Shown here piece by piece: positions 58 to 37,564 of a DNA stretch of 37,564 nt. Position 1 is the stretch's first letter; every line of letters begins with the position of its first letter. The notes under the pieces are model-generated. The model made no database searches. It was not told the origin of the DNA and worked only from the letters and a program-made list of their open reading frames with translations. The translations under genes and the position numbers were made by a program. This DNA comes from Neisseriaceae bacterium (GTDB lineage Bacteria > Pseudomonadota > Gammaproteobacteria > Burkholderiales > Neisseriaceae): contig JAFZMY010000106.1 in the NCBI GenBank assembly GCA_017553165.1, forward strand, positions 1 to 37,564, read 5' to 3'.

Positions 58-96
58 TATTTTAAAACTTCCTATACTTTTACACTGCCGGAAAGC

Positions 97-759
97 TTAA
101 ATATCTTCCCACTTAATCCAATAATCTATCATTTCCGGCAGACGGTTATTACTGCATATGGCTTTAAAATCTTTATCATCAGCTTCAATAGTTAACCAAT
201 CATTTTGCGTTTCATCACCAATGGAAATATTTAGTTCTGATTTATCATATTCTCCATCGATAAGTAATTCCCAAGCACAATTATCAATTGTTTTTAATGT
301 CATTCCTGTTCCATGATTATCCCAAGCTAAATCGATAGCCCACAATTCACCACGATATTCTAATGATTGAATGGCAAATTTAATAAAAAACCATTTTTGT
401 AGAAAATGTAAAAAACCATCTCTAAAATTTAATGGTATTTCTTCAAAATCTAACCATTTTACAAAATGATAAATTAAATCTGGAAAATTAATACGACCAG
501 AGTAAGCTTCAAATGAATTTTCATTTGCATTAATAACTATCCAATTATCATTATTTACCAATGGATTAAGTTCATCAACTATTCTTAATGGAGTACCTTC
601 ATCAATATAATCAAATTGAAATATCTGTTTATTTTTTTCTCCATTGACTTCTAATTTCCAACCTGGATTATCAACATTATCTAATGTGAAACTGCATTCA
701 CTATTATCTTTATACCATTTTTGTAATAAATTAATAAAATACATATTATATCCATACAA
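97..759 (-). CDS. two-domain Imm53-like immunity protein, candidate cognate of the 269-aa toxin-like protein
   Basis: Intact 220-aa ORF lying directly downstream (minus strand) of the toxin-like gene. It has an internal duplication. Repeat 1 is LLQKWY...LDNVDNPGWKLEVNGEKNK...NDNWIVINA...FPDLIYHFVKW. Repeat 2 is FLQKWF...CAWELLIDGE...NDWLTIEA...CSNNRLPEMIDYWIKW. The W..W/DNPGW/DW.I/..W pattern matches what I recall of the Imm53 family. There is no signal peptide. The first codon at 759 is TTG, and the ATG at 744 is an alternative start. Confidence 0.55.
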   Translation of the reverse strand: MYGYNMYFINLLQKWYKDNSECSFTLDNVDNPGWKLEVNGEKNKQIFQFDYIDEGTPLRIVDELNPLVNNDNWIVINANENSFEAYSGRINFPDLIYHFVKWLDFEEIPLNFRDGFLHFLQKWFFIKFAIQSLEYRGELWAIDLAWDNHGTGMTLKTIDNCAWELLIDGEYDKSELNISIGDETQNDWLTIEADDKDFKAICSNNRLPEMIDYWIKWEDI

Positions 760-791
760 TAATATTCATTGAATTATATTGATATTATCTT

Positions 792-821
792 AAAAACAAA
801 GGGATTTACCCCTTTGTTTTT
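792..821. terminator. strong bidirectional-looking hairpin between the toxin-like gene and its immunity gene
   Basis: AAAAACAAAGGG (792-803) pairs with CCCTTTGTTTTT (810-821), giving a 12-bp stem and a 6-nt loop. A/T runs flank it on both sides. It starts 3 nt after the TAG stop of the 269-aa gene (824-826). Confidence 0.6.
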
Positions 822-823
822 AA

Positions 824-1633
824 CTATTTTCCCCTTTTTCTAATACCTTGTGCTGATTGAAGTTGTTGCTTTAATAATCTATCTGCTATACGAATATCTT
901 GATTTGTTGCAGCCTTGATTTCGCCATTGTTATTTAAAAATACTTTACCATCTTGTGGACGAATATTTCTTGTAAGCCATTGAGAATGTGGCGTTTCTAT
1001 TTGTGTATTTGTTTTTTTGTTTGTTGTATGTGCTCGACCACGTAAGTCTATACGACCACTTCTTTCTGCAGTATTAAATCTAACCGAATTGGTGTTGTAT
1101 TTTTTCGCAACATCTTCTGCCATTTGTTTTGTAGTTTTAGGAGCGTAATTTGTTGTAGTATTTGCAATCTTTTTGGTGTTATTTACAGTATTTACCGCAT
1201 TCGTAGTCTTTTTAGTGTTACTCACCGCTTTGGTAACTTTTGCAACGGCTTCCACCTTTTTCACTGTACCAATAGCAGAACCACCTGGAATTGCAGAAGT
1301 AGCACCTTCAATAGCACCTGCTTTTGCGACTTCCTTAACGCTTGCAGGTTCTCCGGTTTTAGCATAGCTTTCGCCATGTTTCATCCACATTCCAAAGGCA
1401 ATTGCACCCAATCCAATGGCAACAAGCGGTAAAAACTCGCCCTCTGTTTCCTGCATTTCTTGCTTGGACAGTTCCACCGCTTGTATTTTGTGGTTATTGT
1501 CTACATCAAATACTTTGCTGTTAAAGGCTTTTTTTGCCTGTACTGCATTGGGACGAGTTGTTACTTCTTTGGCAAAACCTGCTGATGATATAGCAATTGC
1601 AACTATTGTTGCTATAATTTTTTGTGCTTTCAT
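824..1633 (-). CDS. secreted or membrane-anchored polymorphic-toxin-like protein with a basic C-terminal domain of unknown fold
   Basis: Intact 269-aa ORF with a GAGGA RBS. It has a Sec-type signal peptide (MKAQKIIATIVAIAISSAGFA/KE) and a Gly/Ala-rich hydrophobic segment (LPLVAIGLGAIAFGMWM, then GAIEGATSAIPGGSAIG). A Lys/Thr/Asn/Ala low-complexity linker follows. The last ~95 aa form a basic domain (NSVRFNTAERSGRIDLRGRAHTTNKKTNTQIETPHSQW...). The N-terminus is duplicated at 1-57, and an immunity-type gene lies immediately downstream. That it is coding is near certain; the toxin function is inferred. Confidence 0.5.
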   Translation of the reverse strand: MKAQKIIATIVAIAISSAGFAKEVTTRPNAVQAKKAFNSKVFDVDNNHKIQAVELSKQEMQETEGEFLPLVAIGLGAIAFGMWMKHGESYAKTGEPASVKEVAKAGAIEGATSAIPGGSAIGTVKKVEAVAKVTKAVSNTKKTTNAVNTVNNTKKIANTTTNYAPKTTKQMAEDVAKKYNTNSVRFNTAERSGRIDLRGRAHTTNKKTNTQIETPHSQWLTRNIRPQDGKVFLNNNGEIKAATNQDIRIADRLLKQQLQSAQGIRKRGK

Positions 1634-1796
1634 TAAAAAATCCTCATTATTTATTTAATATACAATAAGTTACTTTGATTTCACTCAACGTAACTTGCGA
1701 TGTGTGTGATGCATCACGTGGCTAAATTTACAAGCAAAATATTTGTCAAAGCAAGGAGTACTTTTAAAAATTTTATTGCTTAAAAAGTAATCAAGC

Positions 1797-1812
1797 AAAA
1801 AAAAAAAAAAAA
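1797..1812. repeat. A16 homopolymer (T16 on the coding strand of the flanking genes)
   Basis: Counted directly: a at 1797-1800, 1801-1810 and 1811-1812, followed by CAAAACAA. It lies 12 nt after the stop of the 131-aa ORF and 164-179 nt upstream of the toxin-like gene's ATG. Confidence 0.95.
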
Positions 1813-1824
1813 CAAAACAATATG

Positions 1825-2220
1825 TTACAAATTCGCCAAGTGTTGTATTTTGACAACATGCGAAGTGGCTTGTGTTAGATAGTAAATATACTCACTATTC
1901 CATAAATAAGATAAATTAGCATAAATATCGGTTTTACCAGTTAAACCATAACGCAATCCCACATTACCCAATAGCATATCATTATTGCTATTAGTTTGTG
2001 AAAAAACTGTTGGTATTGCCACCAATGAATGATTAGTAGTTTCAATATAAACAGGTTGCGAAACAGAATTATTTTGTTGCTCACTATTAGCATAAGTTAG
2101 ATTAGCTTCTAATTTAAATTTACCCTTATCGGTATAAAGTTCTTCTAAACTTAAAGGCAAATCTGCCCATAAATTAGTAGAACACAAAAATGCAAAAACA
2201 AATAAAAAACGTTTATTCAT
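1825..2220 (-). CDS. signal-peptide protein resembling the N-terminal part of an outer-membrane beta-barrel, probably a truncated remnant
   Basis: 131-aa ORF with a signal peptide (MNKRFLFVFAFLCSTNLWA/D). It shows alternating beta-strand-like segments (KFKLEANLTYANSE, LLGNVGLRYGL, TDIYANLSYLW). This pattern is typical of small OM barrels or MetA-pathway-type transporters, which are usually about twice this length. There is no C-terminal aromatic residue. All frames downstream are closed. AAGGAA RBS. Confidence 0.4.
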   Translation of the reverse strand: MNKRFLFVFAFLCSTNLWADLPLSLEELYTDKGKFKLEANLTYANSEQQNNSVSQPVYIETTNHSLVAIPTVFSQTNSNNDMLLGNVGLRYGLTGKTDIYANLSYLWNSEYIYYLTQATSHVVKIQHLANL

Positions 2221-2242
2221 ATATTTTCCTTATAAATTTTCA

Positions 2243-2857
2243 TTAAATACTTACCCAATGTATAGCATAATCAAATGCTTTAATTAATCTATTATTACTA
2301 CACGTACATTCAAATACTTGATGATTAAATTCTTGAATATTTGAATTAATAAAAATCCAATCATCATCAGAATTTTTAATTTTTATATCAATAATATCTT
2401 TATTTTTTTCACCATTAATACGTATTTTCCAAGCAAAAGAATCTAAACTATCAACATGAAAACCATAACAATGTTCCCAATCTCCATTACATTTTGAATT
2501 ATACCATTTTTGCATAGAAGTTAACAAATCAATATTATCTATGCAATAAGTATTATAATCAGTAATCCATTGAATAAAATAATTAAATAACTCTGGAAAT
2601 CTATTATTACTGCAATAACCATTAAATTCATTTGATGTGGCTTTAATTGAAATCCAATCATTATCATCTTCTGGATTATCAAAAAATATTTTTATATCTT
2701 TTTTATTAATTTCACCATTTACTTCTATAAACCAACCAGGATTATCTAAATTACCTAAATGAAAATTTAAATTTTGTTTAATATTTTTATTGTATTTAGA
2801 ATTACACCAATCTTGTAAAAATTTAACAGTATTGTTTTTCATATTTTTATAATCCAA
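2243..2857 (-). CDS. two-domain Imm53-like immunity protein with no adjacent toxin gene (orphan)
   Basis: 204-aa ORF with two repeats. Repeat 1 is FLQDWCN...LGNLDNPGWFIEVNGEINK...DNDWISIKA...CSNNRFPELFNYFIQW. Repeat 2 is MQKWYNSKCNGDWEHCYGFHVDSLDSFAWKIRINGEKNK...DDWIFINS...CSNNRLIKAFDYAIHW. The WY..CNGDWEH..G and LDNPGW motifs are the Imm53 signature as I remember it. It is roughly 30% identical to the 220-aa paralogue. TTG start. Confidence 0.6.
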   Translation of the reverse strand: MDYKNMKNNTVKFLQDWCNSKYNKNIKQNLNFHLGNLDNPGWFIEVNGEINKKDIKIFFDNPEDDNDWISIKATSNEFNGYCSNNRFPELFNYFIQWITDYNTYCIDNIDLLTSMQKWYNSKCNGDWEHCYGFHVDSLDSFAWKIRINGEKNKDIIDIKIKNSDDDWIFINSNIQEFNHQVFECTCSNNRLIKAFDYAIHWVSI

Positions 2858-2904
2858 TATTACTTTTAATCAACAAGGTGAATATTATTTCACCTTTTGT
2901 TTGT

Positions 2905-2933
2905 ACTATATATTTAACATAAGAAAAATTCAA
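2905..2933 (-). promoter_or_regulatory. possible sigma70 promoter for the 204-aa / 131-aa gene pair
   Basis: The minus strand reads TTGAAT (reverse complement of 2928-2933), a 17-nt spacer, then TATAGT (reverse complement of 2905-2910). An 8-bp hairpin (2875-2882 / 2889-2896) sits in the predicted leader. Confidence 0.3.
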
Positions 2934-3028
2934 TTTTTGTTCCGAGATACTCCCATTCCTCTTTTGATAATACCTTGTGGAAACCCCTGCAAAACCCCAA
3001 ATTTTTTAGCAAAAATGTGTTAAAAAAA

Positions 3029-3047
3029 TTTTCAGGCAGCCTGAAAA
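3029..3047. other. subterminal hairpin inside the IS whose two strands read as DUS 12-mers of other Neisseriaceae dialects
   Basis: TTTTCAGG-CAG-CCTGAAAA forms an 8-bp stem. The plus strand contains AGGCAGCCTGAA (3034-3045), and the minus strand of 3031-3042 reads AGGCTGCCTGAA. A related hairpin, TCAGGC-TTTTT-GCCTGA, lies at 3128-3144 just after the transposase stop. Confidence 0.4.
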
Positions 3048-3146
3048 TGAGAATTTTCTCAATTTCATCGAAAAATGGGCAAAAAACAGCGAAAAACAGT
3101 CATTTTTACCCCCAAATCCGCTTATTTTCAGGCTTTTTGCCTGATT

Positions 3147-4163
3147 TTAGGCGTAGTACGGCATAAGTTGTCCTACGCAATGCAATTTATTTGCCGCTTT
3201 CAGTAGATTCGCACAGATTGCTTTTAGCAAAAACTGACCTTCGCATTTTTTCAAGCCAAAGTAACTCGACCGTTTGCCGCCGAAAATGCGGTGTATTGTG
3301 CCGAATGTGCGTTCAACCACATAGCGAGTTTGCGTTAATTTTTTGTTGCGTTGTAGTTGAGCGTCCGTCAAAGGCGTACCTTTCTTCACCTTATCCATAA
3401 TTCCATTTTTCAAACCACGATTTTTTAAGTGATTGCGGTTCTCTTCACTACAATAACCCTTATCCGCATAAACCATTGTATTTTCAGGTAAATCATCTAA
3501 CAGCGGAGCAAAATTTTTGGTATCACTCTCGTTTGCAGGTGTGCCGTAGGCTTTACCCACAAAACCCTCCTCATCAACTATATTGTGCATTTTGAAACCC
3601 AACTTCCACTTACCATATTTCTTCTGCCAGCCAGCGTCTTGGTCTTTGCACAGCGTATATTCAACGGCGTTGCCGTCTTTATCTTCTTCAATGACTTTGT
3701 TATATTTACTTGCCGCCGTTTGAATAATGGTTGCGTCAATAATCGCCGTATCTGCATTTTTGACTTTCAAGCCATATTCTTCTAATTGACGATTGATTTC
3801 ATCTAACAATTTACTCAATAAACCATTATCTATCAAAAAGTTACGAAAACGCCCCAAAGTTGTTGCATCAGGAATTTCCATATCATCAAAACCACAAAAC
3901 AGCATAAAATCATTACGAACCGCCAAAGAATATTCCAACGCTTCGTCCGATAAAGAATGTCATTGACCTAATATAACCGCTTTCAACATAGCAATCGTAT
4001 CATAAGGCGGACGACCACCTTTGTCGTAAGAAACTTGCTTAACTTCTTGAACAATCAATAAAATCTTTTTCCAGTTAATCAGTATGTTAATCTTCAACAA
4101 AGGCGATTTCTGTGCATACCGCTCCATTTTGTCCTTAACCGTCTGCATAAAAAAACTGCTCAT
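3147..4163 (-). pseudogene. IS5-family transposase interrupted by one in-frame TGA (3960-3962)
   Basis: ORFs 3960..4163 and 3147..3938 are in the same frame. The junction reads ...AVILGQ*HSLSDEALEYSLAVRNDF.... In IS5/InsH-type transposases this motif is LLQQW(F/Y)NLSD, so the TGA replaces a conserved TGG Trp. The N-terminal part has the GRPPYD motif (DUF772-like). The C-terminal part is a DDE domain (IIDAT..., YADKGY..., ERTFG). Confidence 0.75.
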
Positions 4164-4241
4164 CTTTAATCCTACCGAAATTCGTAACTTATTGAATTAT
4201 AACAAGTTTGTGATTTTGTGTCAAGCAAATTATAAATAAAA

Positions 4242-4381
4242 TCAATAGGTTAGTAAATTAAACCAAAATGGTTGATGAAAAGTGAAAAAGGGGTTTTGCA
4301 GGGGGTTCATAAAGTCAATGGGTTAGTAAATTAAACCAAAATGGTTGATGAAAAGTGAAAAGGGGGTTTTGCAGGGGGTTC
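4242..4381. repeat. tandem duplication of the IS right end (2 x 67 bp, period 73 bp)
   Basis: 4242-4308 and 4315-4381 (TCAATRGGTTAGTAAATTAAACCAAAATGGTTGATGAAAAGTGAAAARGGGGTTTTGCAGGGGGTTC) differ at only 2 positions. Confidence 0.85.
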
Positions 4382-4488
4382 TTTAACCTATCGATAATCA
4401 CCGAGTGAAATTAAAATTTGCGAAATAATATTGACACAACCACGCAGGGTCGCCACTACGGAATAAATTTCTTTTGTTTTTAAAATAA

Positions 4489-4548
4489 GTTTTGCAGGGG
4501 TTTCTCAAAATGACAAATAAAATAAAAGTAGGTTTTGCAAAGGTTTCA
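4489..4548. repeat. two further solo right-end TIR copies in the same orientation
   Basis: GTTTTGCAGGGGTTTC (4489-4504) is the perfect reverse complement of the IS left TIR at 2980-2995. TTTTGCAAAGGTTTCA (4533-4548) is identical to the right end of the MITE at 10489-10504. Confidence 0.6.
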
Positions 4549-4560
4549 ATCTACAAATAA

Positions 4561-4587
4561 AAAGCCACGTTAGCGTAACGTGGCTTT
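4561..4587 (-). terminator. rho-independent terminator of the cco operon
   Basis: AAAGCCACGTTA-GCG-TAACGTGGCTTT forms a 12-bp stem. It lies 23 nt downstream of the ccoP stop and is followed on the minus strand by TTTTATTTG. Confidence 0.75.
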
Positions 4588-4609
4588 GAGTTTGTCAATT
4601 AAACTTAAA

Positions 4610-5929
4610 TTACTGTAAAGATACTTCTACACGGCGTGCTTCTGCTTCTGCACCGGCATCAGTACTTTCAGGTTTTTTAAGGTCAATTACGTCTTCTGGA
4701 ATGCCTAATTCAAGCAAAGTTTTTTGGACTGACATTGCACGCTGTTTTGCTAATTCAGCATTTTGTGCAGCATCGCCAGATGCGTCATGGAAACCAGAAA
4801 TTACAACTTTTTTACCTTCGGCAACACCTGCAACAATAGCTGCGAGTGATTCGGCGGCATCAGCAGATAAATCTTGGCTACCAGATGCAAAGTAGAATTT
4901 AACCACGCCATCATCACCTACAACAACGCTGTTTTCATCAGCAGCAGGAGTTGCTGCTGTATCCTCAGCCGGTGTAACAGCTGGTGCTGGGTCTTTGCTG
5001 TGGTCAGATAAGCCCCATACGTATGCAGTTAAGATACGTAATTTGGCAGTATCATCACCATCAACCAAGAAGTTTTCCCATTTGGGCATTTCATTGGTAT
5101 GACCTTGTCTAATGGTATTTATGATGTCTTGTTCACCAGCTCCCCATAACCAAACATTGTCGGTTAAGTTAGGTGCTAAACCTGTTAAACCTTTACCGTC
5201 ATCTTGGTGGCAAGTAAAACAGATTTGATCATAAATTAGCTTACCTTTAGCTACACGGTCTTCAATGGCTTTGCTACGGAATGCTTCATTTTCATTCAAA
5301 GACAGTACGTAATGAGCAACATTACGAACTTCGTCTTCTGGGAATGGTTCTAAACCACCGTATGCAGGCATGCTACCAATACGACCGTAACGAATGGTCT
5401 CTTCGATTTCTTCTGGAGAACCACCCCATAACCAATCGTTATCAGTCAAGTTAGGGAAACCAATCGCACCTTTTGCATCAGAGCCATGGCACTGAATACA
5501 GTAAGTGTTGAATAGGTTTTGACCGATAACTTTTGCTTCTGAATCTTTTGCAATTTCTTCAATAGATTTATTAGCAAATTTGTTATAAATCGGTTGATAT
5601 TGTGCTTTTGCTTCTGCTACTTCATTCTCATAACGATTGGCACTTGTCCAACCTTTGAGACCTTTGAATGATGAAAAGCCTGGATATAGAGTTAAATAAG
5701 CTATACCGAAAACAACGGTAATAATAAACAGATAGAACCACCAACGGGGTAGGGGATTGTTGTATTCCTCAATTCCGTCCCATTCGTGTCCCATTGTTTC
5801 AACCTTGTCGCCTGTTCTTTTGGTTTTGTTTTGAGAAACTAACAGCCAAACCAAACCAATGAAACTGGCGATCACGATCACTGCTGTATAGATAGTCCAG
5901 AAATTACTGGTGAAATCTGATGTATTCAT
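4610..5929 (-). CDS. ccoP: cbb3-type cytochrome c oxidase subunit III (dihaem CcoP) with a C-terminal OmpA-like domain
   Basis: 439 aa. It has an N-terminal TM helix, the PLPRWW motif and two haem c sites (CIQCH, CFTCH). An Ala/Pro/Thr linker follows. The C-terminal ~100 aa fit the OmpA_C pattern (VKFYFASGSQDL...VVISGFHDASGD..QNAELAKQRAMSV...LGIPEDVI...RRVEV). It lies in ccoN-O-Q-P order. Confidence 0.9.
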   Translation of the reverse strand: MNTSDFTSNFWTIYTAVIVIASFIGLVWLLVSQNKTKRTGDKVETMGHEWDGIEEYNNPLPRWWFYLFIITVVFGIAYLTLYPGFSSFKGLKGWTSANRYENEVAEAKAQYQPIYNKFANKSIEEIAKDSEAKVIGQNLFNTYCIQCHGSDAKGAIGFPNLTDNDWLWGGSPEEIEETIRYGRIGSMPAYGGLEPFPEDEVRNVAHYVLSLNENEAFRSKAIEDRVAKGKLIYDQICFTCHQDDGKGLTGLAPNLTDNVWLWGAGEQDIINTIRQGHTNEMPKWENFLVDGDDTAKLRILTAYVWGLSDHSKDPAPAVTPAEDTAATPAADENSVVVGDDGVVKFYFASGSQDLSADAAESLAAIVAGVAEGKKVVISGFHDASGDAAQNAELAKQRAMSVQKTLLELGIPEDVIDLKKPESTDAGAEAEARRVEVSLQ

Positions 5930-6132
5930 TTATTCGCTCCGTTTTCATGAGAGTCTGATTGCTTCTGACTCGATGTATTTGCAATAGGAGTATCATCGTC
6001 ATCGACAATACCGCGAGCAATTTGGTCATATTCTGCTTTTGCACCTTTGCGATAAGCAATAAGTACAAAGGCAATGAACGCACCAAAACAAACTACTGTA
6101 AAAAGAGTTCGAGCCAGATCAATCATAATCAC
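5926..6132 (-). CDS. ccoQ: cbb3-type cytochrome oxidase subunit CcoQ (FixQ)
   Basis: 68-aa single-TM protein lying between ccoO and ccoP. It has a 4-nt ATGA overlap with the ccoP start. Confidence 0.75.
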   Translation of the reverse strand: MIMIDLARTLFTVVCFGAFIAFVLIAYRKGAKAEYDQIARGIVDDDDTPIANTSSQKQSDSHENGANK

Positions 6133-6144
6133 TTATCTCTTGGG

Positions 6145-6768
6145 TTAGTTCGCTTGGTTAGTTTCATCAGCCAAAGCATGACCTAAACTTTGCAAGTAAG
6201 CAATCATCGCGTCTAATTCGGTTTTATTAGACATCAACTCTTGGGCTGCTGCAAAATCCGCCTCGGTATATGGAACACCAACGATTTTTAAGGTCTTCAT
6301 ATGGCGAACTGTTGCATCAATATTTACTGGATTGCGTTTAAGCCAAGGGAATGCTGGCATCACTGATTCAGGTACAACTGAACGTGGATCGTCCATGTGT
6401 TGTTCGTGCCAAGTGTCGGAATAACGACCACCAACACGTGCTAAATCAGGACCAGTACGTTTGGAGCCCCATTGGAATGGGTGATCATAAACAGACTCAC
6501 CACCGACAGAGTAATGACCATAGCGTTCGGTTTCTGCACGGAACGGACGAATCATTTGTGAGTGGCAGTTGTAGCAGCCTTCACGAATGTAAATGTCGCG
6601 ACCTGCTAATTCCAAAGCGTTGTATGGTTTTAAACCAGGTGCTGGTTCGGTTACAGATTTAGAACCGAATAATGGCACCACTTCGATAAGTAAGCCTACA
6701 CTGATTAACAGAAAAATGAAAATAATCAAGAATGCTAACTTTTCTTCTGCAAGTTTTTGTAGTTCCAT
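6145..6768 (-). CDS. ccoO: cbb3-type cytochrome c oxidase subunit II (monohaem CcoO)
   Basis: 207 aa with an N-terminal TM helix and the CYNCH haem motif. It also has conserved [10 protein letters not shown] and RPF..E..RYG blocks. Confidence 0.93.
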
Positions 6769-6787
6769 AATTTAAGCCCGCCTTTCA

Positions 6788-8218
6788 TTAATGTTGAGTT
6801 TGCGAAGCAGTTGGAATAGGAGCGTCAACACACTCACCTGCACCAATGGTTTTTAAGGTGTTAATTAACATAACCACCATACCAGACAGGTATAACAAAC
6901 CACCCAACATGCGGATAACGAAGAACCAATGACTTTGTTTAACAGACTCAATGAAAGAGTAAGTTAAAGTGCCGTCAGGGTTCAAATCACGCCACATTAA
7001 ACCTTGCATTACACCAGCAATCCACATGGAAGCAATGTATAACACAACGCCGATGGTGGCAATCCAGAAGTGTAATTCTACTAATTTGGTAGAGTACATT
7101 TCTTTGCGACCAAACAAGCGAGGAATTAAGTAGTACATAGACCCCATAGTTACAAAGCCAACCCAGCCTAATGCACCAGAGTGTACGTGACCCACGGTCC
7201 AGTCAGTGTAGTGGCTCAATGCGTTCACTGATTTAACAGACATCATTGGACCTTCAAAGGTACTCATACCGTAGAAAGACAAAGATACAATCAAGAATTT
7301 CAAAATAGGATCGGTACGCAGTTTATGCCATGCACCAGATAAGGTCATAATACCGTTAATCATACCACCCCAAGATGGAGCCAATAAAATCAAAGAGAAC
7401 ACCATGCCCAAAGATTGTGTCCAGTCAGGCAATGCGGTGTAGTGTAAGTGGTGAGGACCTGCCCACATATAAGTGAAAATCAAAGCCCAGAAGTGAACCA
7501 CTGATAAACGGTAAGAATAAACAGGACGACCTGCTTGTTTTGGCACGAAGTAGTACATCATACCCAAGAAGGCTGCGGTCAAGAAGAAACCTACAGCATT
7601 ATGACCATACCACCATTGAACCATGGCATCAATCGCACCTGCATATACAGGATAAGATGTGGTGAAATCAGATGGAACCGCAATGTTATTTACAATGTGT
7701 AACAGTGCTACTGCAAGAATAAATGCAGCGTAGAACCAGTTAGCCACATAAATGTGTTTTACCTTGCGGATTGCTAATGTACCGAAGAATACGATTGCAT
7801 AAGCCACCCAAACCACAGTTAATAACAAGTCTGCCCACCAAGGTAATTCGGCGTACTCTTTACCTTGTGTAATCCCTAATGGGTAACATATAGCGGCAGA
7901 AAGAATCACTAACTGGAAGCCCCAGAAAGTGAACATTGCCAACGGTCCTGCGAAGAGGCGTGTGTTACAAGTGCGTTGCACCACGTAATACGATGTTGCG
8001 AACAATGCACAACCGCCAAATGCAAAGATGACGGCATTAGTATGTAAAGGGCGTAGTCGTCCAAAATGAAACCACGGACCAATGTCCGTTAAGTTTAATG
8101 CTGGGAATGCAAGCTGAGCTGCAATCAGCACCCCAACCAACATGCCGACAATACCCCAAACTACGGTCATAACGGCGAACATCCGTATTACCTTGTAGTT
8201 GTAAGTTTGCGTTTCCAT
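6788..8218 (-). CDS. ccoN: cbb3-type cytochrome c oxidase subunit I (CcoN)
   Basis: 476-aa polytopic haem-copper oxidase subunit, with conserved His ligands in [19 protein letters not shown] and [13 protein letters not shown]. Confidence 0.95.
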
Positions 8219-8330
8219 AAAAAAATCTCCATAAATTATGGGGGTTAAATATTAAGCATTTCGCATTCCAACCTATAAACACGAATGCTCATCTGTTTAG
8301 GATATATTTGATTATTAAATACACCACGTT

Positions 8331-8344
8331 ATGATTTTCATCAC
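8331..8344 (-). promoter_or_regulatory. weak FNR/CRP-type box upstream of ccoN
   Basis: ATGAT-TTTC-ATCAC matches TTGAT-N4-ATCAA at 8/10 positions, with symmetric outer mismatches. It is centred ~120 nt upstream of the ccoN ATG, and an AT-rich -10-like stretch lies ~30 nt downstream on the minus strand. The box sits in the loop of a 7-bp inverted repeat ACCACGT/ACGTGGT (8323-8349). Confidence 0.25.
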
Positions 8345-8462
8345 GTGGTATATTTTATAACAAACTATATCCACAAACCAACAGAAACCTTCAAGTGAGA
8401 TAGAAAAGTTCTGGTGGATTGCAATGTGCTATCAAGGTTATAGAAATTGGCTTTATTTTATT

Positions 8463-8489
8463 TTGACAAATATCAAATAAATTTAGAAT
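8463..8489 (+). promoter_or_regulatory. possible promoter of the M61 peptidase gene (the site also resembles an FNR box)
   Basis: TTGACA (8463-8468), a 15-nt spacer, then TAGAAT (8484-8489); the spacing is suboptimal. The same site reads TTGAC-AAAT-ATCAA, a 9/10 match to the FNR consensus. Confidence 0.3.
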
Positions 8490-8526
8490 ATACTTTTCAT
8501 ATTTCTTTATATAAAAGGCTTTGACG

Positions 8527-10272: not shown

Positions 10273-10312
10273 AAGTCTGCCGGAAAGTATATAATTACTT
10301 TCCGGCAGACTT
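10273..10312 (+). terminator. terminator built from an inverted pair of the uptake-sequence-like 13-mer
   Basis: AAGTCTGCCGGAAAGT (10273-10288) pairs with ACTTTCCGGCAGACTT (10297-10312), giving a perfect 16-bp stem and an 8-nt loop. TTTTG follows. It starts 22 nt after the peptidase stop. Confidence 0.8.
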
Positions 10313-15386: not shown

Positions 15387-15415
15387 AGTCTGCCGGAAAG
15401 GTTTTCCGGCAGACT
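15387..15415 (-). terminator. terminator after serC built from an inverted pair of the 13-mer
   Basis: AGTCTGCCGGAAA (15387-15399), GGT, then TTTCCGGCAGACT (15403-15415), giving a 13-bp stem. It lies 54 nt downstream of the serC stop and upstream of aroC. Confidence 0.75.
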
Positions 15416-16668: not shown

Positions 16669-16710
16669 AGTCTGCCGGAAAAGTTTTATACATAACCTTT
16701 CCGGCAGACT
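16669..16710. repeat. inverted pair of the 13-mer in the divergent serC/cysE intergenic region
   Basis: AGTCTGCCGGAAAAG (16669-16683) and TTTCCGGCAGACT (16698-16710) are separated by ~14 nt. The pair lies between two divergent start codons, so it is not positioned to terminate either gene. Confidence 0.6.
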
Positions 16711-19350: not shown

Positions 19351-19392
19351 AATAATCATATAATTATTTTTCCGGCAGACTATTTTAATTAT

Positions 19393-25855: not shown

Positions 25856-25893
25856 AGTCTGCCGAAAAGAGTTTAATTATGTTTCCGGCAGTG
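25856..25893. terminator. degenerate inverted pair of the 13-mer between convergent genes
   Basis: AGTCTGCCGAAAA (25856-25868, one G missing) faces TTTCCGGCAGTG (25882-25893). The pair lies between the stop of the 214-aa gene (25853) and the stop of lnt (25931). Confidence 0.5.
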
Positions 25894-25930
25894 TTATTTT
25901 CTTGGTTTACGTTTGTTATTTTTGGAAAGT

Positions 25931-27573: not shown

Positions 27574-29985
<2,412 letters not shown>

Positions 29986-31607: not shown

Positions 31608-32690
31608 CTATTTAGGCAACATGTCTGATAGGCAATTTTGCAATAATTCAATATCGTTACATTCCTTAATAATGGCATGTCCGAGTGATTCTAATACTAT
31701 AAATCTAATCTTTCCGGCAGCCACTTTTTTATCGTGTCTCATGTGTTCAATCCAGCGTTCAAATGGGAATTGTGGCGGAGTGTCAGGTAGTGATGCTTTT
31801 TGCAATAAATTACTAACACGTAAAGTATCTTGGGGTGAGATAAATCCCATAAGTTCTGATAGGCGACATGCAACAATCATTCCGGCAGCCACAGCTTCAC
31901 CATGTAGCCATGTTCCGTATCCCATTTGAGTTTCGATAGCATGACCAAAGGTGTGCCCTAAATTTAACAATGCACGTTGTCCATTTTCTTTTTCATCGGC
32001 AGCGACAATATCAGCTTTCATCGCACAGCATTTTTCTACTGCATACGCTAATGATTCATAATCTAATGCCATTAGTTGTTCGATATGTTGTTCTATCCAT
32101 TGTAAAAACTCAATATCTCCTAATAGAGCATATTTAATGACTTCCGCCATGCCAGCGGCAAATTCTCGTTTAGGTAAAGTGTGTAATGTATCTAATCCAG
32201 CAAACACCGCTTGTGGTTGATAAAACGCTCCAATCATATTTTTACCCCAAGGGTGATTAATACCTGTTTTCCCACCAACAGATGAATCTACTTGACTCAA
32301 TAAAGTAGTTGGAATTTGTACAAAAGGCATACCACGTTGATAGGTGGCAGCTGCAAAACCAGTCATATCACCAATTACGCCACCACCTAATGCAATTAAG
32401 GTGGAACGTCTTTCCATGCGTTTTTGCATTAAACTATCATAGATAATCTGTAAAGTTTCTATATTTTTATAACTTTCTCCATCTGGCAGAATAATCTCGT
32501 GAACATTTTTTCCGGCAGACTTTAATACTTCTGTAACGCTTTTTAAGTACAAAGGAGCGATTGTTTCGTTGGTAACAATTGTGCAATTGTTAGCAATGTG
32601 TTGGTTTGAATATTGTTGTAACAATTGAATTAACGATGCTCCAATGTAAATTGGATATGAATGAGACGGAGTATTAACAGATAAAATCAT
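31608..32690 (-). CDS. aroB: 3-dehydroquinate synthase
   Basis: It has the [19 protein letters not shown] and [12 protein letters not shown] motifs. The ATG at 32690 overlaps the aroK TGA (ATGA). The longer ORF-track start at 32735 lies inside aroK. Confidence 0.93.
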
Positions 32691-33202: not shown

Positions 33203-33304
33203 AAGGGATAGATTGTAACCTAAACTATCGTTTGAGTCTCATAATAATAGTTTTCCGGCAGACTTCCAGCTACAAGTTTCATGCAGATGAAATATATCAA
33301 TATA

Positions 33305-33452
33305 AGAAACTCCTGCAAAACTGGCATATGTGGCACATTTCGCACGTTTAAGTTGCTCGAAATCTTGCCTAACTAATTTTTTTATGTCTTCGATTTCTGT
33401 GCTACTAAAACTTTGAACTGTATTCACATCTACCAGTTTTGCAGGAGTTTCT
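33305..33452. mobile_element. MITE copy B (148 bp)
   Basis: Perfect 20-bp TIRs: AGAAACTCCTGCAAAACTGG (33305-33324) and CCAGTTTTGCAGGAGTTTCT (33433-33452). The interior aligns with copy A (e.g. GCATATGTGGCACATTTCGCACGTTTAAGTTGCT versus GCATCTGTGGCACACTTCATACGTTTGCGTTGCT). ATA flanks both ends and may be a 3-bp target duplication. Confidence 0.7.
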
Positions 33453-33458
33453 ATAATC

Positions 33459-33488
33459 TTGACAATAAAATGATTTTAATGCTAAAAT
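33459..33488 (+). promoter_or_regulatory. candidate sigma70 promoter for rpsU, abutting the MITE
   Basis: TTGACA (33459-33464), an 18-nt spacer, then TAAAAT (33483-33488). This would give a ~180-nt leader before rpsU. Confidence 0.4.
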
Positions 33489-33674
33489 TGCCGATTCATT
33501 TTTCAGGTTTTGTTTTGAGTAACAACTTGAATTTAAGACATAGTGTGCTACTTAACTACGCATTGGGTTTGTCAGGAGGTGGTTTTTAGTAAAAAACGTT
33601 AAATCGTTAAATGCCCAAATGTGAGTTAATAGCATGATTTTGAATTAATTTTGAAATTTAAAGAAGGATAATAA

Positions 33675-33887
33675 ATGCCAAGTATTCGTGTAAAAGAAGG
33701 CGAAGTTTTTGAAGTGGCAATGCGTCGCTTCAAACGTTCTGTGGAAAAATCTGGACTCCTGACAGAGTTGCGTGCTCGTGAAGCATACGAAAAACCTACT
33801 ACCGAACGTAAACGTAAAAAAGCAGCAGCAGTTAAACGCACTCAAAAACGTTTGCGTAGCCAACAATTACCTCCAAAATTATACTAA
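33675..33887 (+). CDS. rpsU: 30S ribosomal protein S21
   Basis: [67 protein letters not shown] is near-identical to the Neisseria-type S21 as I remember it. GAAGGA RBS. Confidence 0.97.
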
Positions 33888-33925
33888 TTGTAACGGTGCA
33901 TACTGTTTGAATAAGTATGCGATAT

Positions 33926-34015: not shown

Positions 34016-34840
34016 ATGAAAAATATTTTATTGTATTTTGCTTTATTAACATCTGTTGCTTTGTGCTCTTGTAGCCGGAATACAGATGCTTGTTGCGTAC
34101 AACAAGCACAAAATGCTACTGATACACAAACAGTACAAGCAAATTCTGCCACAGAAAATTCCCAAGAAAATAAAGTGCTTGCTAATTTAGCAGATATGTT
34201 ACTTTTGTATGAGGAAGAAGATGGGGATTCTGCAATAAGCAAATATGCCCTGATTGATATTGATAAAGATGGTCAAGATGAAATTTGGATAACCAGCCAT
34301 GACGAGAGAGATGGTGCGGTTTTTTCACTTATTGGCGAAAAGCCAATTTTATTAGCATCACAAATAGGAAGACTTTCGCCATCTTTTGCATCAGGAGTAC
34401 TATCTATGTCTGGTGCAACTGGAGGTCCTACTTATTACACCGGACTTATTACAATTAAAAATAGTCTGCCGGAACACACTTTGTCTATTTCTAATGTATA
34501 TGATGATTACAGCTACTATTTAGATGACAAAGAAATTAGCGAAAGTGAAGCTAAACAATTTCAATCGACATTGCCCCAAGACTTTTCGCAAACAGTAACA
34601 CTAATTGAGTTGCCAATTGGTAATGAGCAAGGCGATGAAATTGACAAGCAATTGTTTGAATTAAATAAAATAAAACATGAGTGGTTGCAAACATTGCCAA
34701 CTGATGCAAAGAATAATACCTTAATTCAACAGGCAACAACTATTAATGAAAATCTAAAAAGCAAATTAGATACAATGAGTGTAGTGCAAAAGAATGCGTT
34801 TTATACAATCAAACCAGTTGATAATTGGAAGAATCCATAA
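34016..34840 (+). CDS. lipoprotein of unknown function
   Basis: MKNILLYFALLTSVALCSCS is a signal peptide with a lipobox-like Cys. It is followed by a Gln/Thr/Asn-rich linker and a ~220-aa domain I cannot assign. The ORF-track start at 33917 would overlap the rpsU terminator, so the ATG at 34016 is preferred. Confidence 0.6.
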   Translation: MKNILLYFALLTSVALCSCSRNTDACCVQQAQNATDTQTVQANSATENSQENKVLANLADMLLLYEEEDGDSAISKYALIDIDKDGQDEIWITSHDERDGAVFSLIGEKPILLASQIGRLSPSFASGVLSMSGATGGPTYYTGLITIKNSLPEHTLSISNVYDDYSYYLDDKEISESEAKQFQSTLPQDFSQTVTLIELPIGNEQGDEIDKQLFELNKIKHEWLQTLPTDAKNNTLIQQATTINENLKSKLDTMSVVQKNAFYTIKPVDNWKNP

Positions 34841-34865
34841 ATTGTAATTCTTGGGAGCAAAAGAA

Positions 34866-35309
34866 ATGTCATTGAAACAGCAAATTAATGAAGATATGAA
34901 AAGTGCGATGAAGGCACGCCTTGCTGATAAATTATCAACTATTCGCATGCTTTTAGCTGCTATGAAACAAGTTGAAGTTGACGAACGTATTGAATTAGAT
35001 GATGCACGTATTATTACCATTATTACCAAAATGGTTAAGCAACGCCAAGATTCTGAACGCATTTACCGCGAAGCAGGACATACCGAGAGAGCCGAAAAGG
35101 AAGCCTTTGAAATTGCTCTTTTGAAGAACTATTTGCCACAACAAATGTCTGATGATGAAATTAAAAACCTTATTGACCAAACAATTAGCAATACAGGTGC
35201 AACAAGCATGGCAGATATGGGAAAAGTAATGGGGCAACTTAAAACACAATTGGCAGGACGTGCAGATATGGCTGTGGTTAGCCGTTTATTGAAAGAGGCT
35301 TTATCTTAA
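34866..35309 (+). CDS. yqeY: GatB/YqeY domain protein
   Basis: It has the MSLKQQINEDMKSAMKA...LSTIRMLLAAMKQ start and the C-terminal GKVMGQLK block typical of YqeY. A GGGAG RBS precedes the ATG at 34866. Confidence 0.8.
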   Translation: MSLKQQINEDMKSAMKARLADKLSTIRMLLAAMKQVEVDERIELDDARIITIITKMVKQRQDSERIYREAGHTERAEKEAFEIALLKNYLPQQMSDDEIKNLIDQTISNTGATSMADMGKVMGQLKTQLAGRADMAVVSRLLKEALS

Positions 35310-35357
35310 ATAGACTTTTGTATTAAGACGCAGTTGTTTTTTTAGGAATTAAGAATA

Positions 35358-37121
35358 GTGATTCCGCCTGATTTTGTCGATGATTTGCTATCACGCGTTG
35401 ATATTGTTGATGTAATTAGTGCTTATGTTCCTTTGAAAAAAGGTGGGCAAAATTATGTAGCATGTTGTCCGTTTCATAAGGAAAAAACACCGTCTTTTAC
35501 GGTAGCACCGAATAAACAGTTTTATCATTGTTTCGGTTGCGGTGCACATGGGAGTGCAATCGGTTTTTTGATGGAATATGCACATTTATCATTTACCGAT
35601 GCGGTTGAACAATTAGCCAATCGCGTTGGAATGAGCGTGCCATACACTAAACATCGAGAAACCAATCAGGAAAGAGAGGAAAGAAAACGTCATCGTGCTT
35701 CATTAGTAGATTACATGGTGCAATGTGCAGATTTTTATCATAAGCAATTAGGCTTATCGACACGTGCACAAAAATATCTGCATAATCGAGGGCTTAATTC
35801 AGAGATAATTAGCCGCTTCGGTTTAGGTTATGCACCGGCACAATGGCAGTCTTTGCATGCTATATTTGATGATTATCCGAATGAAAATTTGATTTCTTCG
35901 GGTATGGTATTGGAAAAAGATGGTAGGCATTACGATCGTTTTCGCGACCGCATTATGTTTCCAATACGCGATATTTCAGGACAAGTAATAGCATTTGGTG
36001 GTCGCATATTGGAAAGTGGGGAACCTAAATACCTTAATTCACCAGAGACACCAATATTTAACAAAGGCAGCCATCTATACGGATTATACGAAGCACGTGC
36101 CGATATTAAACATGAACAAAAGGTAGTTGTTGTCGAAGGATATATGGACGTTGTTGCTTTGGCACAGCATAAAATTGGCTATGCCGTAGCGACACTTGGT
36201 ACTGCAACAACTGCTGAACATATTCGCTTATTATTCCGGCAGACTGATGCGATTTATTTTTGTTTTGATGGGGATAATGCAGGACGTAAGGCAGCGTGGA
36301 GAGCATTAGAAAATTCTTTATCACAATTGCAAGATGATAAAAGTATTTACTTTCTGTTTTTACCACCAGAACACGACCCAGATTCATACGTGAGAGAGTA
36401 CGGTAGCGAATATTTTTCCGGCAGTCTTAAAAAAGATGCAATACCACTTTCACGTTATTGGTTAAGTGAATTAATGCGTGATATTGATACAAACACGCAG
36501 GAAGGACGGGCAGAGTTAATCCACCGTGCAATGCCACATTTATCAGAGATTAAAGCGGTAAATTTAAAATACTTGCTTACTCAAAATTTGGCACAAACAG
36601 TTGAAATAGACATTGCTGATATTCAATATTTATTGGGTCAGCAATTGCCAGTTAAAAAACAAGCTTATAGAAAAGCGAGATTTCCTAAAAAAACTTTCCG
36701 GCAGCCTCGCTTATCTACTTTGGCACAACAGCAGATTAAATGGCTTTTGATTAATCCTGAATGGGAAAAATACGTTGAAATGCCGGAGTACTTATTATTG
36801 TCGGAAGAATATACGATTTTGGCAGAATTATCAGCCTTGATTCGTGATAATAATTTACGCAGTACCGAACAAGTTTGGGAATATTTACGCAATCACGACT
36901 ATGAGGAAATTTTGCATCGTATTTGGCGTGAAAATGCCAATATTAGTGAAGAATTTGGGGAATTAGATGAAGACGATGAAACAATGTTTCGTCATGGAAT
37001 GCAAAGACTTGCTCTAACTATTCGTGATGAGCAAGTTAATGAATTAGTGGAAAAGTCAAAGTATCAACCATTGACTACTGCTGAACAGGAATTATTGAAA
37101 AGTTTACTGATTAGAAATTAA
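35358..37121 (+). CDS. dnaG: DNA primase
   Basis: It has the zinc-binding motif CCPFHKEKTPSFTV...YHCFGCGAHG and a TOPRIM domain (VVVEGYMDVVAL, FDGDNAGRKAA). GTG start with an AGGA upstream. Confidence 0.95.
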   Translation: MIPPDFVDDLLSRVDIVDVISAYVPLKKGGQNYVACCPFHKEKTPSFTVAPNKQFYHCFGCGAHGSAIGFLMEYAHLSFTDAVEQLANRVGMSVPYTKHRETNQEREERKRHRASLVDYMVQCADFYHKQLGLSTRAQKYLHNRGLNSEIISRFGLGYAPAQWQSLHAIFDDYPNENLISSGMVLEKDGRHYDRFRDRIMFPIRDISGQVIAFGGRILESGEPKYLNSPETPIFNKGSHLYGLYEARADIKHEQKVVVVEGYMDVVALAQHKIGYAVATLGTATTAEHIRLLFRQTDAIYFCFDGDNAGRKAAWRALENSLSQLQDDKSIYFLFLPPEHDPDSYVREYGSEYFSGSLKKDAIPLSRYWLSELMRDIDTNTQEGRAELIHRAMPHLSEIKAVNLKYLLTQNLAQTVEIDIADIQYLLGQQLPVKKQAYRKARFPKKTFRQPRLSTLAQQQIKWLLINPEWEKYVEMPEYLLLSEEYTILAELSALIRDNNLRSTEQVWEYLRNHDYEEILHRIWRENANISEEFGELDEDDETMFRHGMQRLALTIRDEQVNELVEKSKYQPLTTAEQELLKSLLIRN

Positions 37122-37147
37122 ATAGTTTTCTATTGGAGTATTAAAGT

Positions 37148-37564
37148 ATGGCAACGTCAACAAAATCCAAGGCAAAAAATAGTGCAACAGTTAGTAAAAC
37201 TGCCAAAACAACTGCTACCAAAGCACCTGCTAAAAAGGTTGCAAGCAAAAGTGTTCCGGCAGACTCTAAAACAAGCAAAACTATCACTACCAAAGTAAGT
37301 AAGACTGCCGGAAAAACAAATGTTGCCAAAGCAACAGCAAGCAAAGCAACAGCAAGCAAAGCAACAGCAAACAAAGCAACAGCAAGTAAGGCTACTGCAA
37401 GTAAGGCTACTGCAAGTAGGGCTACTGCAAGCAAAGCAACAGCAAGCAAAGCAACAGCAAGTAAGGCTACTGCAAGTAGGGCTACTGCAAGCAAAGCAAG
37501 TGCAAGTAAGGCTACTGCAAGCAAAGCAACAGCAAGCAAAGCAACAGCAAGCAAAGCAACAGCA
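37148..37564 (+). CDS. 5' part of a gene encoding a Lys/Ala/Thr/Ser-rich repeat N-terminus (histone-H1-like); by position possibly rpoD with a basic extension
   Basis: The ATG at 37148 lies 9 nt after GGAG (37135-38). The frame stays open for all 139 codons to the window end. It reads MATSTKSKAKNSATVSKTAKTTATKAPAKKVASKSVPADSKTSKTITTKVSKTAGKTNVAK(ATASK)n. It is missing from the ORF track because it has no stop in the window. The listed antisense ORF 37141..37554 is its mirror image. Confidence 0.55.
   Translation, partial: MATSTKSKAKNSATVSKTAKTTATKAPAKKVASKSVPADSKTSKTITTKVSKTAGKTNVAKATASKATASKATANKATASKATASKATASRATASKATASKATASKATASRATASKASASKATASKATASKATASKATA
37331..37564 (+). repeat. 15-bp in-frame tandem repeat, at least 15.6 copies, truncated by the window end
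   Basis: The units alternate between GCAACAGCAAGCAAA and GCTACTGCAAGTAAG/AGG, which are synonymous-codon variants of ATASK. Hybrid units and three substituted units (ATANK, ATASR, ASASK) are also present. Counted by hand from 37331. Confidence 0.95.

Follow-up and report, generated by a model that had tools for sequence, protein, structure and literature searches.

An abundant 13-mer as a probable DNA uptake sequence of a Neisseriaceae lineage from the ruminant forestomach

Why does a chromosomal segment of a Neisseriaceae bacterium repeat one and the same short sequence dozens of times? This question is raised by contig JAFZMY010000106.1 (assembly GCA_017553165.1), a metagenome-derived stretch of 37,564 nucleotides that was analyzed as a whole and is referred to here as the window. 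The original prediction, made from the letters of the window, had singled out an over-represented 12-mer and likened it to a DNA uptake sequence (DUS) of an undescribed dialect. Recounting the 12-mer GTCTGCCGGAAA/TTTCCGGCAGAC reproduced all 20 copies at exactly the predicted start positions, while no copy occurred in 100 dinucleotide-preserving shuffles. The predicted extension to the 13-mer AGTCTGCCGGAAA was present at 16 of the 20 sites, the variant AGACTGCCGGAAA was found six times at the same places as before, and the 9-mer core CTGCCGGAA, previously put at about 43 copies, was counted 43 times in the 37.5-kb window (0.11 expected). Under Markov models (orders 1 to 4), 0.002 to 0.07 copies of the 12-mer were expected, in agreement with the negligible chance expectation stated earlier, and the GC content, estimated before at about 37%, was measured as 36.5%. 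In a k-mer census of the window, the motif ranked first at each k from 8 to 14.

A scan of 185,579 species-representative genomes, for which the motif was used as a query in its inverted-pair form, returned at least about 50 loci from two Neisseriaceae metagenome-assembled genomes (MAGs), RGIG6070 and RGIG6059 (sheep omasum); among the matches listed were also eight unrelated genomes with one hairpin each. The MAG loci (327 kb; GC content of 36%, as in the window) contained 444 cores and 277 exact copies of AGTCTGCCGGAAA, and the motif ranked first in their k-mer census as well. The core density was 1.15/kb in the window and 1.36/kb in the MAG loci, and three contigs that were retrieved via their proteins, and hence blind to the motif, displayed 1.3 to 2.6 cores/kb. 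The enrichment is thus found outside the window at the same density (about 1.2 to 2.6 cores/kb). Altogether, the sampled sequence of the lineage amounts to about 0.37 Mb (~370 kb), a fraction of the genome. A sequence logo derived from every copy within two mismatches read A G T(a) C T G C C G G A A A; the next position was A or G, and an AT-rich tail came after it. Variation was essentially absent from the nine central bases, the A at position +10 was conserved in 100% of the copies, and the flanks showed no conservation except for AT-richness. Since flank conservation stops at the 13-mer, the motif is a free-standing 13-mer and not a fragment of a longer repeat. One-substitution neighbors of the core were scarce (at most 22 compared to 499 intact cores); at position +7, a G was present in 499 cores and a T in 22.

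We propose that AGTCTGCCGGAAA, with its invariant core CTGCCGGAA, is in all likelihood the DUS of a Neisseriaceae lineage of the ruminant forestomach, a reading whose proposed mechanism builds on analogy with Neisseria. Abundance, anatomy, distribution, conservation and taxonomic setting of the motif, as well as the presence of ComP-like, ComEA-like and ComM genes, were observed directly. The finding is another dialect within the known DUS kind of system and not a new kind of system.

The comparison between species bears on the maintenance of the motif. Between the window and RGIG6070, all nine alignable motif sites were identical, including three imperfect ones, against a background identity of 86 to 87%. 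For the ligA-lnt region, comparison with a contig of a sister species (L074) showed that 10 of 10 cores were kept, with no lineage-specific gains or losses, at a chance retention of 0.28 per site. Combined, 19 of 19 orthologous sites were identical in sister-species contigs at that background identity. This cross-species conservation is the strongest evidence for active maintenance of the motif. It also bears on the most serious alternative, according to which the copies are fossils: uptake bias would have acted in the past, and the lineage, which looks host-associated and is unusually low in GC, would no longer be competent, so that the copies would be decaying relics or serve as terminators only. 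The pilus and DNA translocation machinery was indeed not seen in the sampled ~370 kb, and the candidate receptor described below is atypical. However, relics would decay at the background rate, whereas all 19 sites, imperfect intragenic ones included, were unchanged at 87% identity; moreover, the comM, ComP-like and ComEA-like genes are intact, and one-substitution neighbors are rare next to the intact cores. We consider a fossil DUS unlikely and return to a DUS that is still maintained.

The distribution of the copies resembled that of a DUS. Copies were present on both strands, and their orientation with respect to the local GC skew (246:238) revealed no replication polarity. Within the window, 33 of the 43 cores (77%) were located in coding sequences, and 8 of the 16 exact 13-mers were found in non-coding DNA, which itself makes up about 10% of the window. 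The intragenic copies encoded the peptides SLPE, SAGK, LSGR/LSGS and FPA(D/E/V); the original prediction had named SLPE, LSGRL/LSGSL and (F/V)PAD and had placed copies on both strands, in coding sequences and in inverted pairs, which was borne out. Usage of the frames was skewed (SLPE, n = 10; SAGK type, n = 9; antisense LSGR/LSGS, n = 8), and a frame encoding Cys-Arg was used by no intragenic copy of the window. As regards a preference for genome-maintenance genes, the core density was 2.9/kb for ligA and 1.7/kb for dnaG but 0.66/kb for comM, with few genes compared.

These observations also speak to a second alternative, in which the motif would be a site for another DNA-processing system: a polar motif such as Chi or KOPS, a nuclease site of the Ssn/NTS type or a CCGG-based restriction-modification or methylation tag. 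CCGG is embedded in the motif, and the neisserial NTS/dRS3 repeats targeted by the Ssn nuclease are likewise abundant and tied to transformation, which they modulate as protein targets (PMC11893778). A polar motif of the Chi/KOPS type was ruled out by the 246:238 ratio, which shows no strand polarity. NTS are hairpins of ~30 bp that occur in hundreds of copies, are almost never intragenic (2%) and lower transformation (PMC11893778), whereas the motif studied here is a 13-mer with ~1 copy/kb, mostly intragenic; on this anatomy, an NTS/Ssn-type site was ruled out as well. A part played by the embedded CCGG in methylation-based discrimination is conceivable, but it would leave 13 conserved bases unexplained. 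Restriction sites are usually avoided and not amplified 400-fold, and 13 specified bases are beyond the typical specificity of a methylase. A role in another DNA-processing system is therefore very improbable, and uptake remains the preferred function.

The copies and inverted pairs of the window are as follows, where an exact 13-mer denotes AGTCTGCCGGAAA.

82–94 (+): motif copy ACACTGCCGGAAA, intergenic, core intact
132–144 (−): motif copy CGTCTGCCGGAAA, Imm53-like gene, sense
8911–8923 (+): exact AGTCTGCCGGAAA, M61 peptidase gene, SLPE frame
9008–9020 (+): motif copy TGTCTGCCGGAAA, M61 peptidase gene
9813–9825 (−): motif copy ATACTGCCGGAAA, M61 peptidase gene, antisense
10274–10311: exact 13-mers as an inverted pair (10274–10286, +; 10299–10311, −), where the 3′ ends of the M61 peptidase gene and coaD converge
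13362–13374 (−): exact 13-mer, PBP4 gene, SLPE frame
15387–15415: exact 13-mers as an inverted pair (3-nt loop), downstream of serC, unchanged in RGIG6070
16669–16710: exact 13-mers as an inverted pair (16-nt spacer), where the 5′ ends of serC and cysE diverge, unchanged in RGIG6070
18236–18248 (−): motif copy TGTCTGCCGGAAA, comM antisense, LSGR frame, identical in RGIG6070
19369–19381 (−): exact 13-mer, comM-tamA intergenic region, unchanged in RGIG6070
20042–20054 (+): motif copy GGTCTGCCGGAAA, tamA, identical in RGIG6070
21519–21531 (+): exact 13-mer, tamB, SLPE, identical in RGIG6070
22048–22060 (−): variant AGACTGCCGGAAA, tamB, identical in RGIG6070
22702–22714 (−): exact 13-mer, tamB antisense, LSGRL
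23347–23359 (+): motif copy ACACTGCCGGAAA, tamB
23914–23926 (−): variant AGACTGCCGGAAA, tamB
24043–24055 (−): variant AGACTGCCGGAAA, tamB
25323–25335 (−): exact 13-mer, C92 peptidase gene antisense, FPAD
25882–25894 (−): motif copy ACACTGCCGGAAA, intergenic, between the 3′ ends of the C92 peptidase gene and lnt
26641–26653 (−): core copy GCACTGCCGGAAG, lnt, core conserved in the sister species (L074)
26677–26689 (−): motif copy ATACTGCCGGAAA, lnt, conserved in L074
27474–27486 (+): exact 13-mer, lnt 5′ end, antisense, conserved in L074
27656–27668 (−): motif copy AGTCTGCCGGAAG, ligA, conserved in L074
27701–27713 (+): motif copy ACACTGCCGGAAA, ligA, conserved in L074
28355–28367 (−): motif copy AGTCTGCCGGAAC, ligA, conserved in L074
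28629–28641 (−): variant AGACTGCCGGAAA, ligA, conserved in L074
28893–28905 (+): motif copy CCTCTGCCGGAAA, ligA, conserved in L074
29355–29367 (−): exact 13-mer, ligA, SLPE, conserved in L074
29391–29403 (−): motif copy ACACTGCCGGAAC, ligA, core conserved in L074
31711–31723 (−): motif copy TGGCTGCCGGAAA, aroB
31879–31891 (−): motif copy TGGCTGCCGGAAT, aroB
32509–32521 (−): exact 13-mer, aroB
33252–33264 (−): exact 13-mer, intergenic, upstream of aroK
34463–34475 (+): motif copy AGTCTGCCGGAAC, 307-aa open reading frame of no assigned function, SLPE
36233–36245 (−): motif copy AGTCTGCCGGAAT, dnaG antisense
36415–36427 (−): variant AGACTGCCGGAAA, dnaG
36695–36707 (−): intermediate form AGGCTGCCGGAAA, dnaG, AG-simDUS with the +7 T>G change alone
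37253–37265 (−): motif copy AGTCTGCCGGAAC, repeat-protein open reading frame
37302–37314 (+): variant AGACTGCCGGAAA, repeat-protein open reading frame

The three inverted pairs, two of which are located at gene 3′ ends, were predicted to form very stable hairpins (−22 to −34 kcal/mol; z-scores of −6.7 to −11.4). The pair at 10274–10311 resembled a bidirectional terminator, as its 17-bp stem is followed by a T run and was matched by a terminator scan (folding energies of −29.8 and −29.4 kcal/mol; z-scores of −8.4 and −10.0). The pair downstream of serC folded with −22 kcal/mol (z-scores of −6.7 and −8.0), and the pair between serC and cysE with −30.5 and −34.1 kcal/mol (z-score of −11.4); the latter is not in a terminator-like position and may have a regulatory role. 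An Rfam scan of the window gave no matches. In the MAG, dozens of pairs with spacers of 2 to 3 or 10 to 16 nt were observed; every spacer sequence was different, which rules out that a mobile element has been copied. A structural or mobile repeat (a REP or MITE element or a terminator module) spread by transposition or selected as an RNA hairpin without any role in uptake, which the stability of the pairs, the 3′-end position of some and their frequency in the MAG might suggest, is the least probable of the explanations considered, since only 6 of the 43 window copies are paired, the intragenic 77% of the cores are single and occur in several frames and both orientations, one pair sits between divergent promoters, and logo, spacers and intragenic positions rule out REP/MITE elements: the longer unit that the original prediction had named as a possible refutation was not found, the flanks and hairpin spacers sharing no sequence.

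To which organism does the motif belong? The genes of the window are chromosomal housekeeping genes (ccoNOP, the M61 peptidase gene, coaD, uppP, secB, grx, the PBP4 gene, aroC, serC and cysE, as well as comM/yifB, tamAB, lnt, ligA, zipA, aroKB and dnaG). The identical ComM protein was found on scaffold_975 of ENA assembly ERZ28653899 (XIEF21-1, SAMN15830089); a Logan contig from run SRR12529216 encodes it as well. As the window and RGIG6070 were 85 to 87% identical across syntenic stretches, the window organism represents a different species of the RGIG6070 lineage. The best matches of its LigA were Neisseriaceae MAGs, with an identity of 87% to the sister species, then at most 60% (MAGs) and ~53% for N. 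gonorrhoeae; in the list of LigA homologs, which was dominated by N. gonorrhoeae variants, no named organism was closer than about 54 to 60%. Judged by these comparisons, the host is an uncultured low-GC Neisseriaceae lineage of the ruminant forestomach that comprises the window organism, RGIG6070 and RGIG6059, and because LigA identity falls from 87% to 60% or less, this lineage appears to branch deeply within the Neisseriaceae. A scan of JGI metagenomes for the 13-mer pair, in which the lineage was not represented, yielded two contigs, each with one hairpin and neither enriched for the motif. On both contigs (L072, 486–514; L073, 2899–2927; GC content of ~36 to 37%), a perfect AGTCTGCCGGAAA hairpin with a 3-nt loop was present and the motif was otherwise absent; L073 also carried a 12-nt coding tandem repeat.

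How does the motif relate to the published dialects? In all eight dialects described by Frye 2013, the CTG at positions +6 to +8 and the A at +10 are kept, and in N. meningitidis, transversions within the CTG nearly abolish transformation and cut DNA uptake more than 100-fold. Three dialects with a CTG core (one from N. animalis and two from Vitreoscilla) were added by a preprint (Helsem et al. 2025), and a census from 2024 listed seven further candidate 12-mers, chosen for CTG at positions 6 to 8; Conchiformibius has been reported to use no defined DUS. None of these published or candidate dialects (8 + 3 + 7) equals AGTCTGCCGGAAA. When the literature was searched for the exact motif, the only matches were chance occurrences in unrelated primers, and the supplements of the N. 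leonii 12-mer census did not contain it. The literature search thus found no description of the dialect, and the motif very probably represents an undescribed one, as had been predicted.

The closest published sequence is AG-simDUS, AGGCTGCCTGAA, from which AGTCTGCCGGAAA differs by +1 G>T and +7 T>G, the latter converting the CTG core at +6 to +8 into CGG. The previously reported match of 10 of 12 positions proved correct against the published sequence, and with the trailing A (AGGCTGCCTGAAA) 11 of 13 positions are identical without a gap. AG-simDUS and AG-kingDUS (AGGCAGCCTGAA), used by Simonsiella, Alysiella and Kingella oralis, belong to the same family and reach the same density, ~1/kb or more (Frye 2013; PMC7371117; PMC10715097). 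In contrast to these two, which overlap as a dyad (TTCAGGCWGCCTGAA), the new motif forms no such dyad, and its pairs are separated hairpins. Contigs from the three relatives closest by LigA (57 to 60% identity; GC content of 38 to 54%) each carried 15 to 36 simDUS cores and no or one copy of the resident core. The contigs of the nearest pilin relatives (GC content of 34 to 37%) carried sim/king dyads and no copy of the resident core, except for the short contig L067, which had neither. Thus, all four sampled relatives (three by LigA, one by pilin) use AG-simDUS/AG-kingDUS, and this saturation supports the alignment with AG-simDUS and the CTG-to-CGG change that the original prediction had preferred. 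Few intermediate forms were found: AGGCTGCCGGAAA at 36695 in the window and two copies of AGTCTGCCTGAAA in the MAG. One low-GC relative (34 to 36%; L063 to L066, ERZ27298102 and others) displayed, in addition to sim/king dyads, the variant pair AGGTTGCCTGAA/AGGCAACCTGAA.

In the ungapped alignment, the motif departs from the published rule of a CTG at +6 to +8. However, the second CTG of simDUS, at +2 to +4, is retained in the new motif, and if the canonical DUS were aligned with a gap (GTCTG-CCGG-AA), a CTG would be kept as well. For these two reasons, loss of the CTG core appears to be the most parsimonious reading of the aligned sequences but not the sole one. The new dialect most likely derives from AG-simDUS, the direction of dialect evolution being inferred. 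With canonical AT-DUS/AG-DUS (ATGCCGTCTGAA; N. meningitidis and N. gonorrhoeae, with ComP as the receptor), the pentamer GTCTG is shared when a gap is allowed, the one alignment in which the CTG stays in register, and GCCGTCTGAA had no copy in 371 kb. The two systems are nevertheless alike: copies lie on either strand, are enriched between genes, form terminator pairs, also occur within genes and are depleted in islands, and both have a ComP-family pilin together with ComEA and ComM. The uptake signal sequences of Pasteurellaceae (AAGTGCGGT/ACAAGCGGT) follow the same concept of a short over-represented signal with many intragenic copies and inverted terminator pairs, but they are unrelated in sequence and belong to another family with another proposed receptor (PMC12616744).

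A DUS calls for a receptor, and the original prediction had pointed to the minor pilin ComP, its DNA-binding surface and the type IV pilus genes. Screening the sampled sequence for prepilin leaders yielded one gene, located in RGIG6070 (contig L034, 1890–2363). Its product matched PF16732 (ComP_DUS) with 33.6 bits (cutoff, 27.3) and PF07963 with 35.8 bits, and when the N-terminal helix was removed, the sole significant PDB matches in a sequence search were 2NBA (E = 7e-5), 2M3K and 5HZ7, all of which are ComP. Flanked by ribBA/DUF1841 on one side and an S9 peptidase gene on the other, the gene is solitary and does not belong to a minor-pilin operon. A copy with 62% identity and the same synteny (P0002; contig L062, 2448–2939) was found on a contig of the same sequencing run as the window; it belonged to the same families, although its PF16732 match was marked as weak. 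The flanks of this copy were 85 to 86% identical to RGIG6070, and since this equals the identity of the window to the MAG and the synteny is shared, P0002 is very probably the gene of the window organism. When an AlphaFold2 model of P0002 was searched with Foldseek, the top three hits were again 5HZ7, 2NBA and 2M3K (probabilities of 1.00, 0.98 and 0.94), with PilX behind them. The four cysteines form a pattern that differs from that of ComP, with one pair in the β1-β2 loop region and one C-terminal pair, and that is shared by the pilins P0003 and P0004 of simDUS organisms. Position K94 of meningococcal ComP was kept in pilin P0001 and not in P0002. While the genes flanking the L034 and L062 pilins shared ~85% DNA identity, BLASTN similarity ended about one-third into the pilin gene. 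The P0003 pilin of the L063 to L066 relative lies in another neighborhood, thrC-pilin-yceI. The ComP-like pilin is a fast-evolving surface protein, and by analogy with ComP, it is the candidate DUS receptor. Two further competence-type genes were found. Contig L018 encodes a secreted ComEA-type helix-hairpin-helix protein of 101 aa, and an intact comM had been predicted for the window, which was confirmed by the following feature.

17842–19350 (+): comM/yifB, Mg-chelatase-like AAA ATPase, 502 aa, intact (TIGR00368, 609.6 bits)

ComM is known as a competence-associated helicase. Apart from the ComEA-like open reading frame, a regular-expression screen of the ~370 kb for PilT/PilB, secretin, DprA and RecA found nothing, which is uninformative for a fraction of the genome.

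Several points weigh against a DUS read by this pilin. The host is uncultured, and its uptake bias is a prediction from the sequence. Coverage of the taxonomic spread of the motif was incomplete, extending to the genome-scan matches listed and to JGI metagenomes without the lineage. Because transversions of the meningococcal CTG nearly abolish transformation, a CGG-core DUS would need a re-tuned receptor. The candidate pilin appears to lack the canonical disulfides of ComP (β1 to DD-loop and β4 to β5): in the alignment, it has no Cys at β1 (C76), and only 8 to 14 residues follow the last Cys, so that a long C-terminal DD-region is missing. R78 of meningococcal ComP aligned with S and K108 with I in HMMER, an alignment that is uncertain at 22 to 25% identity. 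The P0002 model is of moderate confidence (predicted local distance difference test [pLDDT] score of 70; template modeling [TM] scores of 0.34 to 0.49), and the globular part of the pilin is only 62% identical between two species with an identical motif (L034 versus L062). PilT/PilB, PilQ/secretin, ComEC and DprA were not seen in the ~370 kb, which is again uninformative for this fraction of the genome. The expectation of a ComP orthologue with a comparable surface hence held in part, in that a stand-alone ComP-family prepilin was found, while R78, K108 and the disulfide/DD-region pattern were not conserved in the alignment. Similarly, genes for a ComP-family pilin, a ComEA-like protein and ComM were present, whereas pilQ, pilT and comEC were not among the genes seen.

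If the motif is a DUS, its action may be pictured by analogy with Neisseria. A ComP-family minor pilin on type IV pili would bind double-stranded DNA bearing the motif, pilus retraction would bring the DNA into the periplasm, and a ComEA-type protein would retain it there. One strand would then enter the cytoplasm and recombine with the aid of ComM. Motif-bearing DNA, being preferred in uptake and recombining at homologous loci, would drive the motif to ~1 copy/kb and maintain it; intragenic copies would settle in the least costly reading frames, and inverted pairs would double as terminator-type hairpins. The shift of dialect would cut the lineage off genetically from the simDUS-using Neisseriaceae recovered from ruminant-gut metagenomes. 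A tentative proposal, which we hold with some doubt, is that the CTG core itself has mutated here (to CGG) for the first time among DUS dialects and that the motif is read by a ComP-family pilin without the disulfide-bounded DD-region.

The window also contains a stretch without the motif. Positions 145 to 8910 (8.8 kb) carry no resident copy compared to ~10 expected (P of about 4e-5 to 4e-6) and comprise an Imm53/Ntox24-like toxin-immunity cassette, an IS5 transposase gene and ccoNOP. The part with the polymorphic toxin/immunity cassette and IS5 (97–3938; GC content of 31%), which is nearly devoid of the resident motif, looks like horizontally exchanged DNA. The following features were located there.

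97–759 and 2243–2857: Imm53-family genes
824–1633: Ntox24-like match, weak
3031–3045: perfect dyad TTCAGGCAGCCTGAA, AG-kingDUS on one strand and AG-simDUS on the other, ~100 bp from the IS5 transposase gene
3147–3938: IS5-family transposase

Five further sim/king dyads (TTCAGGCWGCCTGAA) were found in MAG loci (L018, positions 207 and 268; L036, position 718; L037, position 7479; L043, position 238), and for each of the dyads the nearest resident copy was 1.3 to 3.3 kb away; their contexts are unrelated, and the patches around them are poor in the resident motif. The overlapping AG-kingDUS/AG-simDUS dyad has been described in Simonsiella, Alysiella crassa and Kingella negevensis, and resident-poor patches with a foreign dialect have been used as a mark of imported DNA in Neisseriaceae (PMC7371117). 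The dyads are probably imports from simDUS-using relatives. That they belong to a repeated mobile element, for example IS5, was ruled out, as the shared sequence is confined to the ~20-nt dyad and the other loci lack the IS region. The two L018 dyads are located directly upstream of the ComEA-like gene. A hairpin formed from sim/king half-sites (3126–3150; ttttcaggc-ttttt-gcctgatttta) overlaps the 3′ end of the IS5 transposase gene, including its stop codon, and a 73-bp tandem repeat in two copies (95% match) lies between the transposase gene and ccoP (4236–4381).

Some other features of the window were recorded. The ccoP open reading frame (4610–5929, −; 439 aa) is a fusion, in which residues 37 to 310 correspond to subunit III of cbb3 oxidase and residues ~313 to 437 match an OmpA-like peptidoglycan-binding anchor of the PA1041/YiaD type, an unusual architecture for CcoP. 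At 37141–37564 (−), a 15-nt tandem repeat of ~16 copies encodes a hydrophobic (LLAVA)n protein that continues past the window end and had no family match. Upstream of aroK, a gap of 714 bp (33203–33916) contained no open reading frame reaching 80 aa and gave no Rfam match; pilQ does not precede aroK in the window, in contrast to the arrangement in Neisseria.

The specificity of DUS is a textbook case of self-DNA recognition in bacteria, with the CTG core, conserved in the eight original dialects, the three added in 2025 and the seven further candidate 12-mers, regarded as its invariant and essential center. Dialect searches that are prefiltered for CTG at +6 to +8 will miss real dialects. The motif itself can be used as a marker, both to assign metagenomic contigs to the lineage and to detect imported DNA within it. 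A CGG dialect beside CTG-using relatives constitutes a natural comparative system, which predicts which receptor contacts changed and tests whether ComP-family pilins without the DD-region read DNA sequence. As the simDUS relatives, too, come largely from ruminant-gut metagenomes, it also allows asking whether a dialect switch goes along with speciation among related bacteria of one host habitat. If the core-mutated dialect and its DD-less pilin hold true, DNA would be captured by a re-tuned or structurally different binding mode, and the dialect switch would constitute a barrier of genetic isolation between this lineage and the simDUS-using Neisseriaceae of the ruminant gut.

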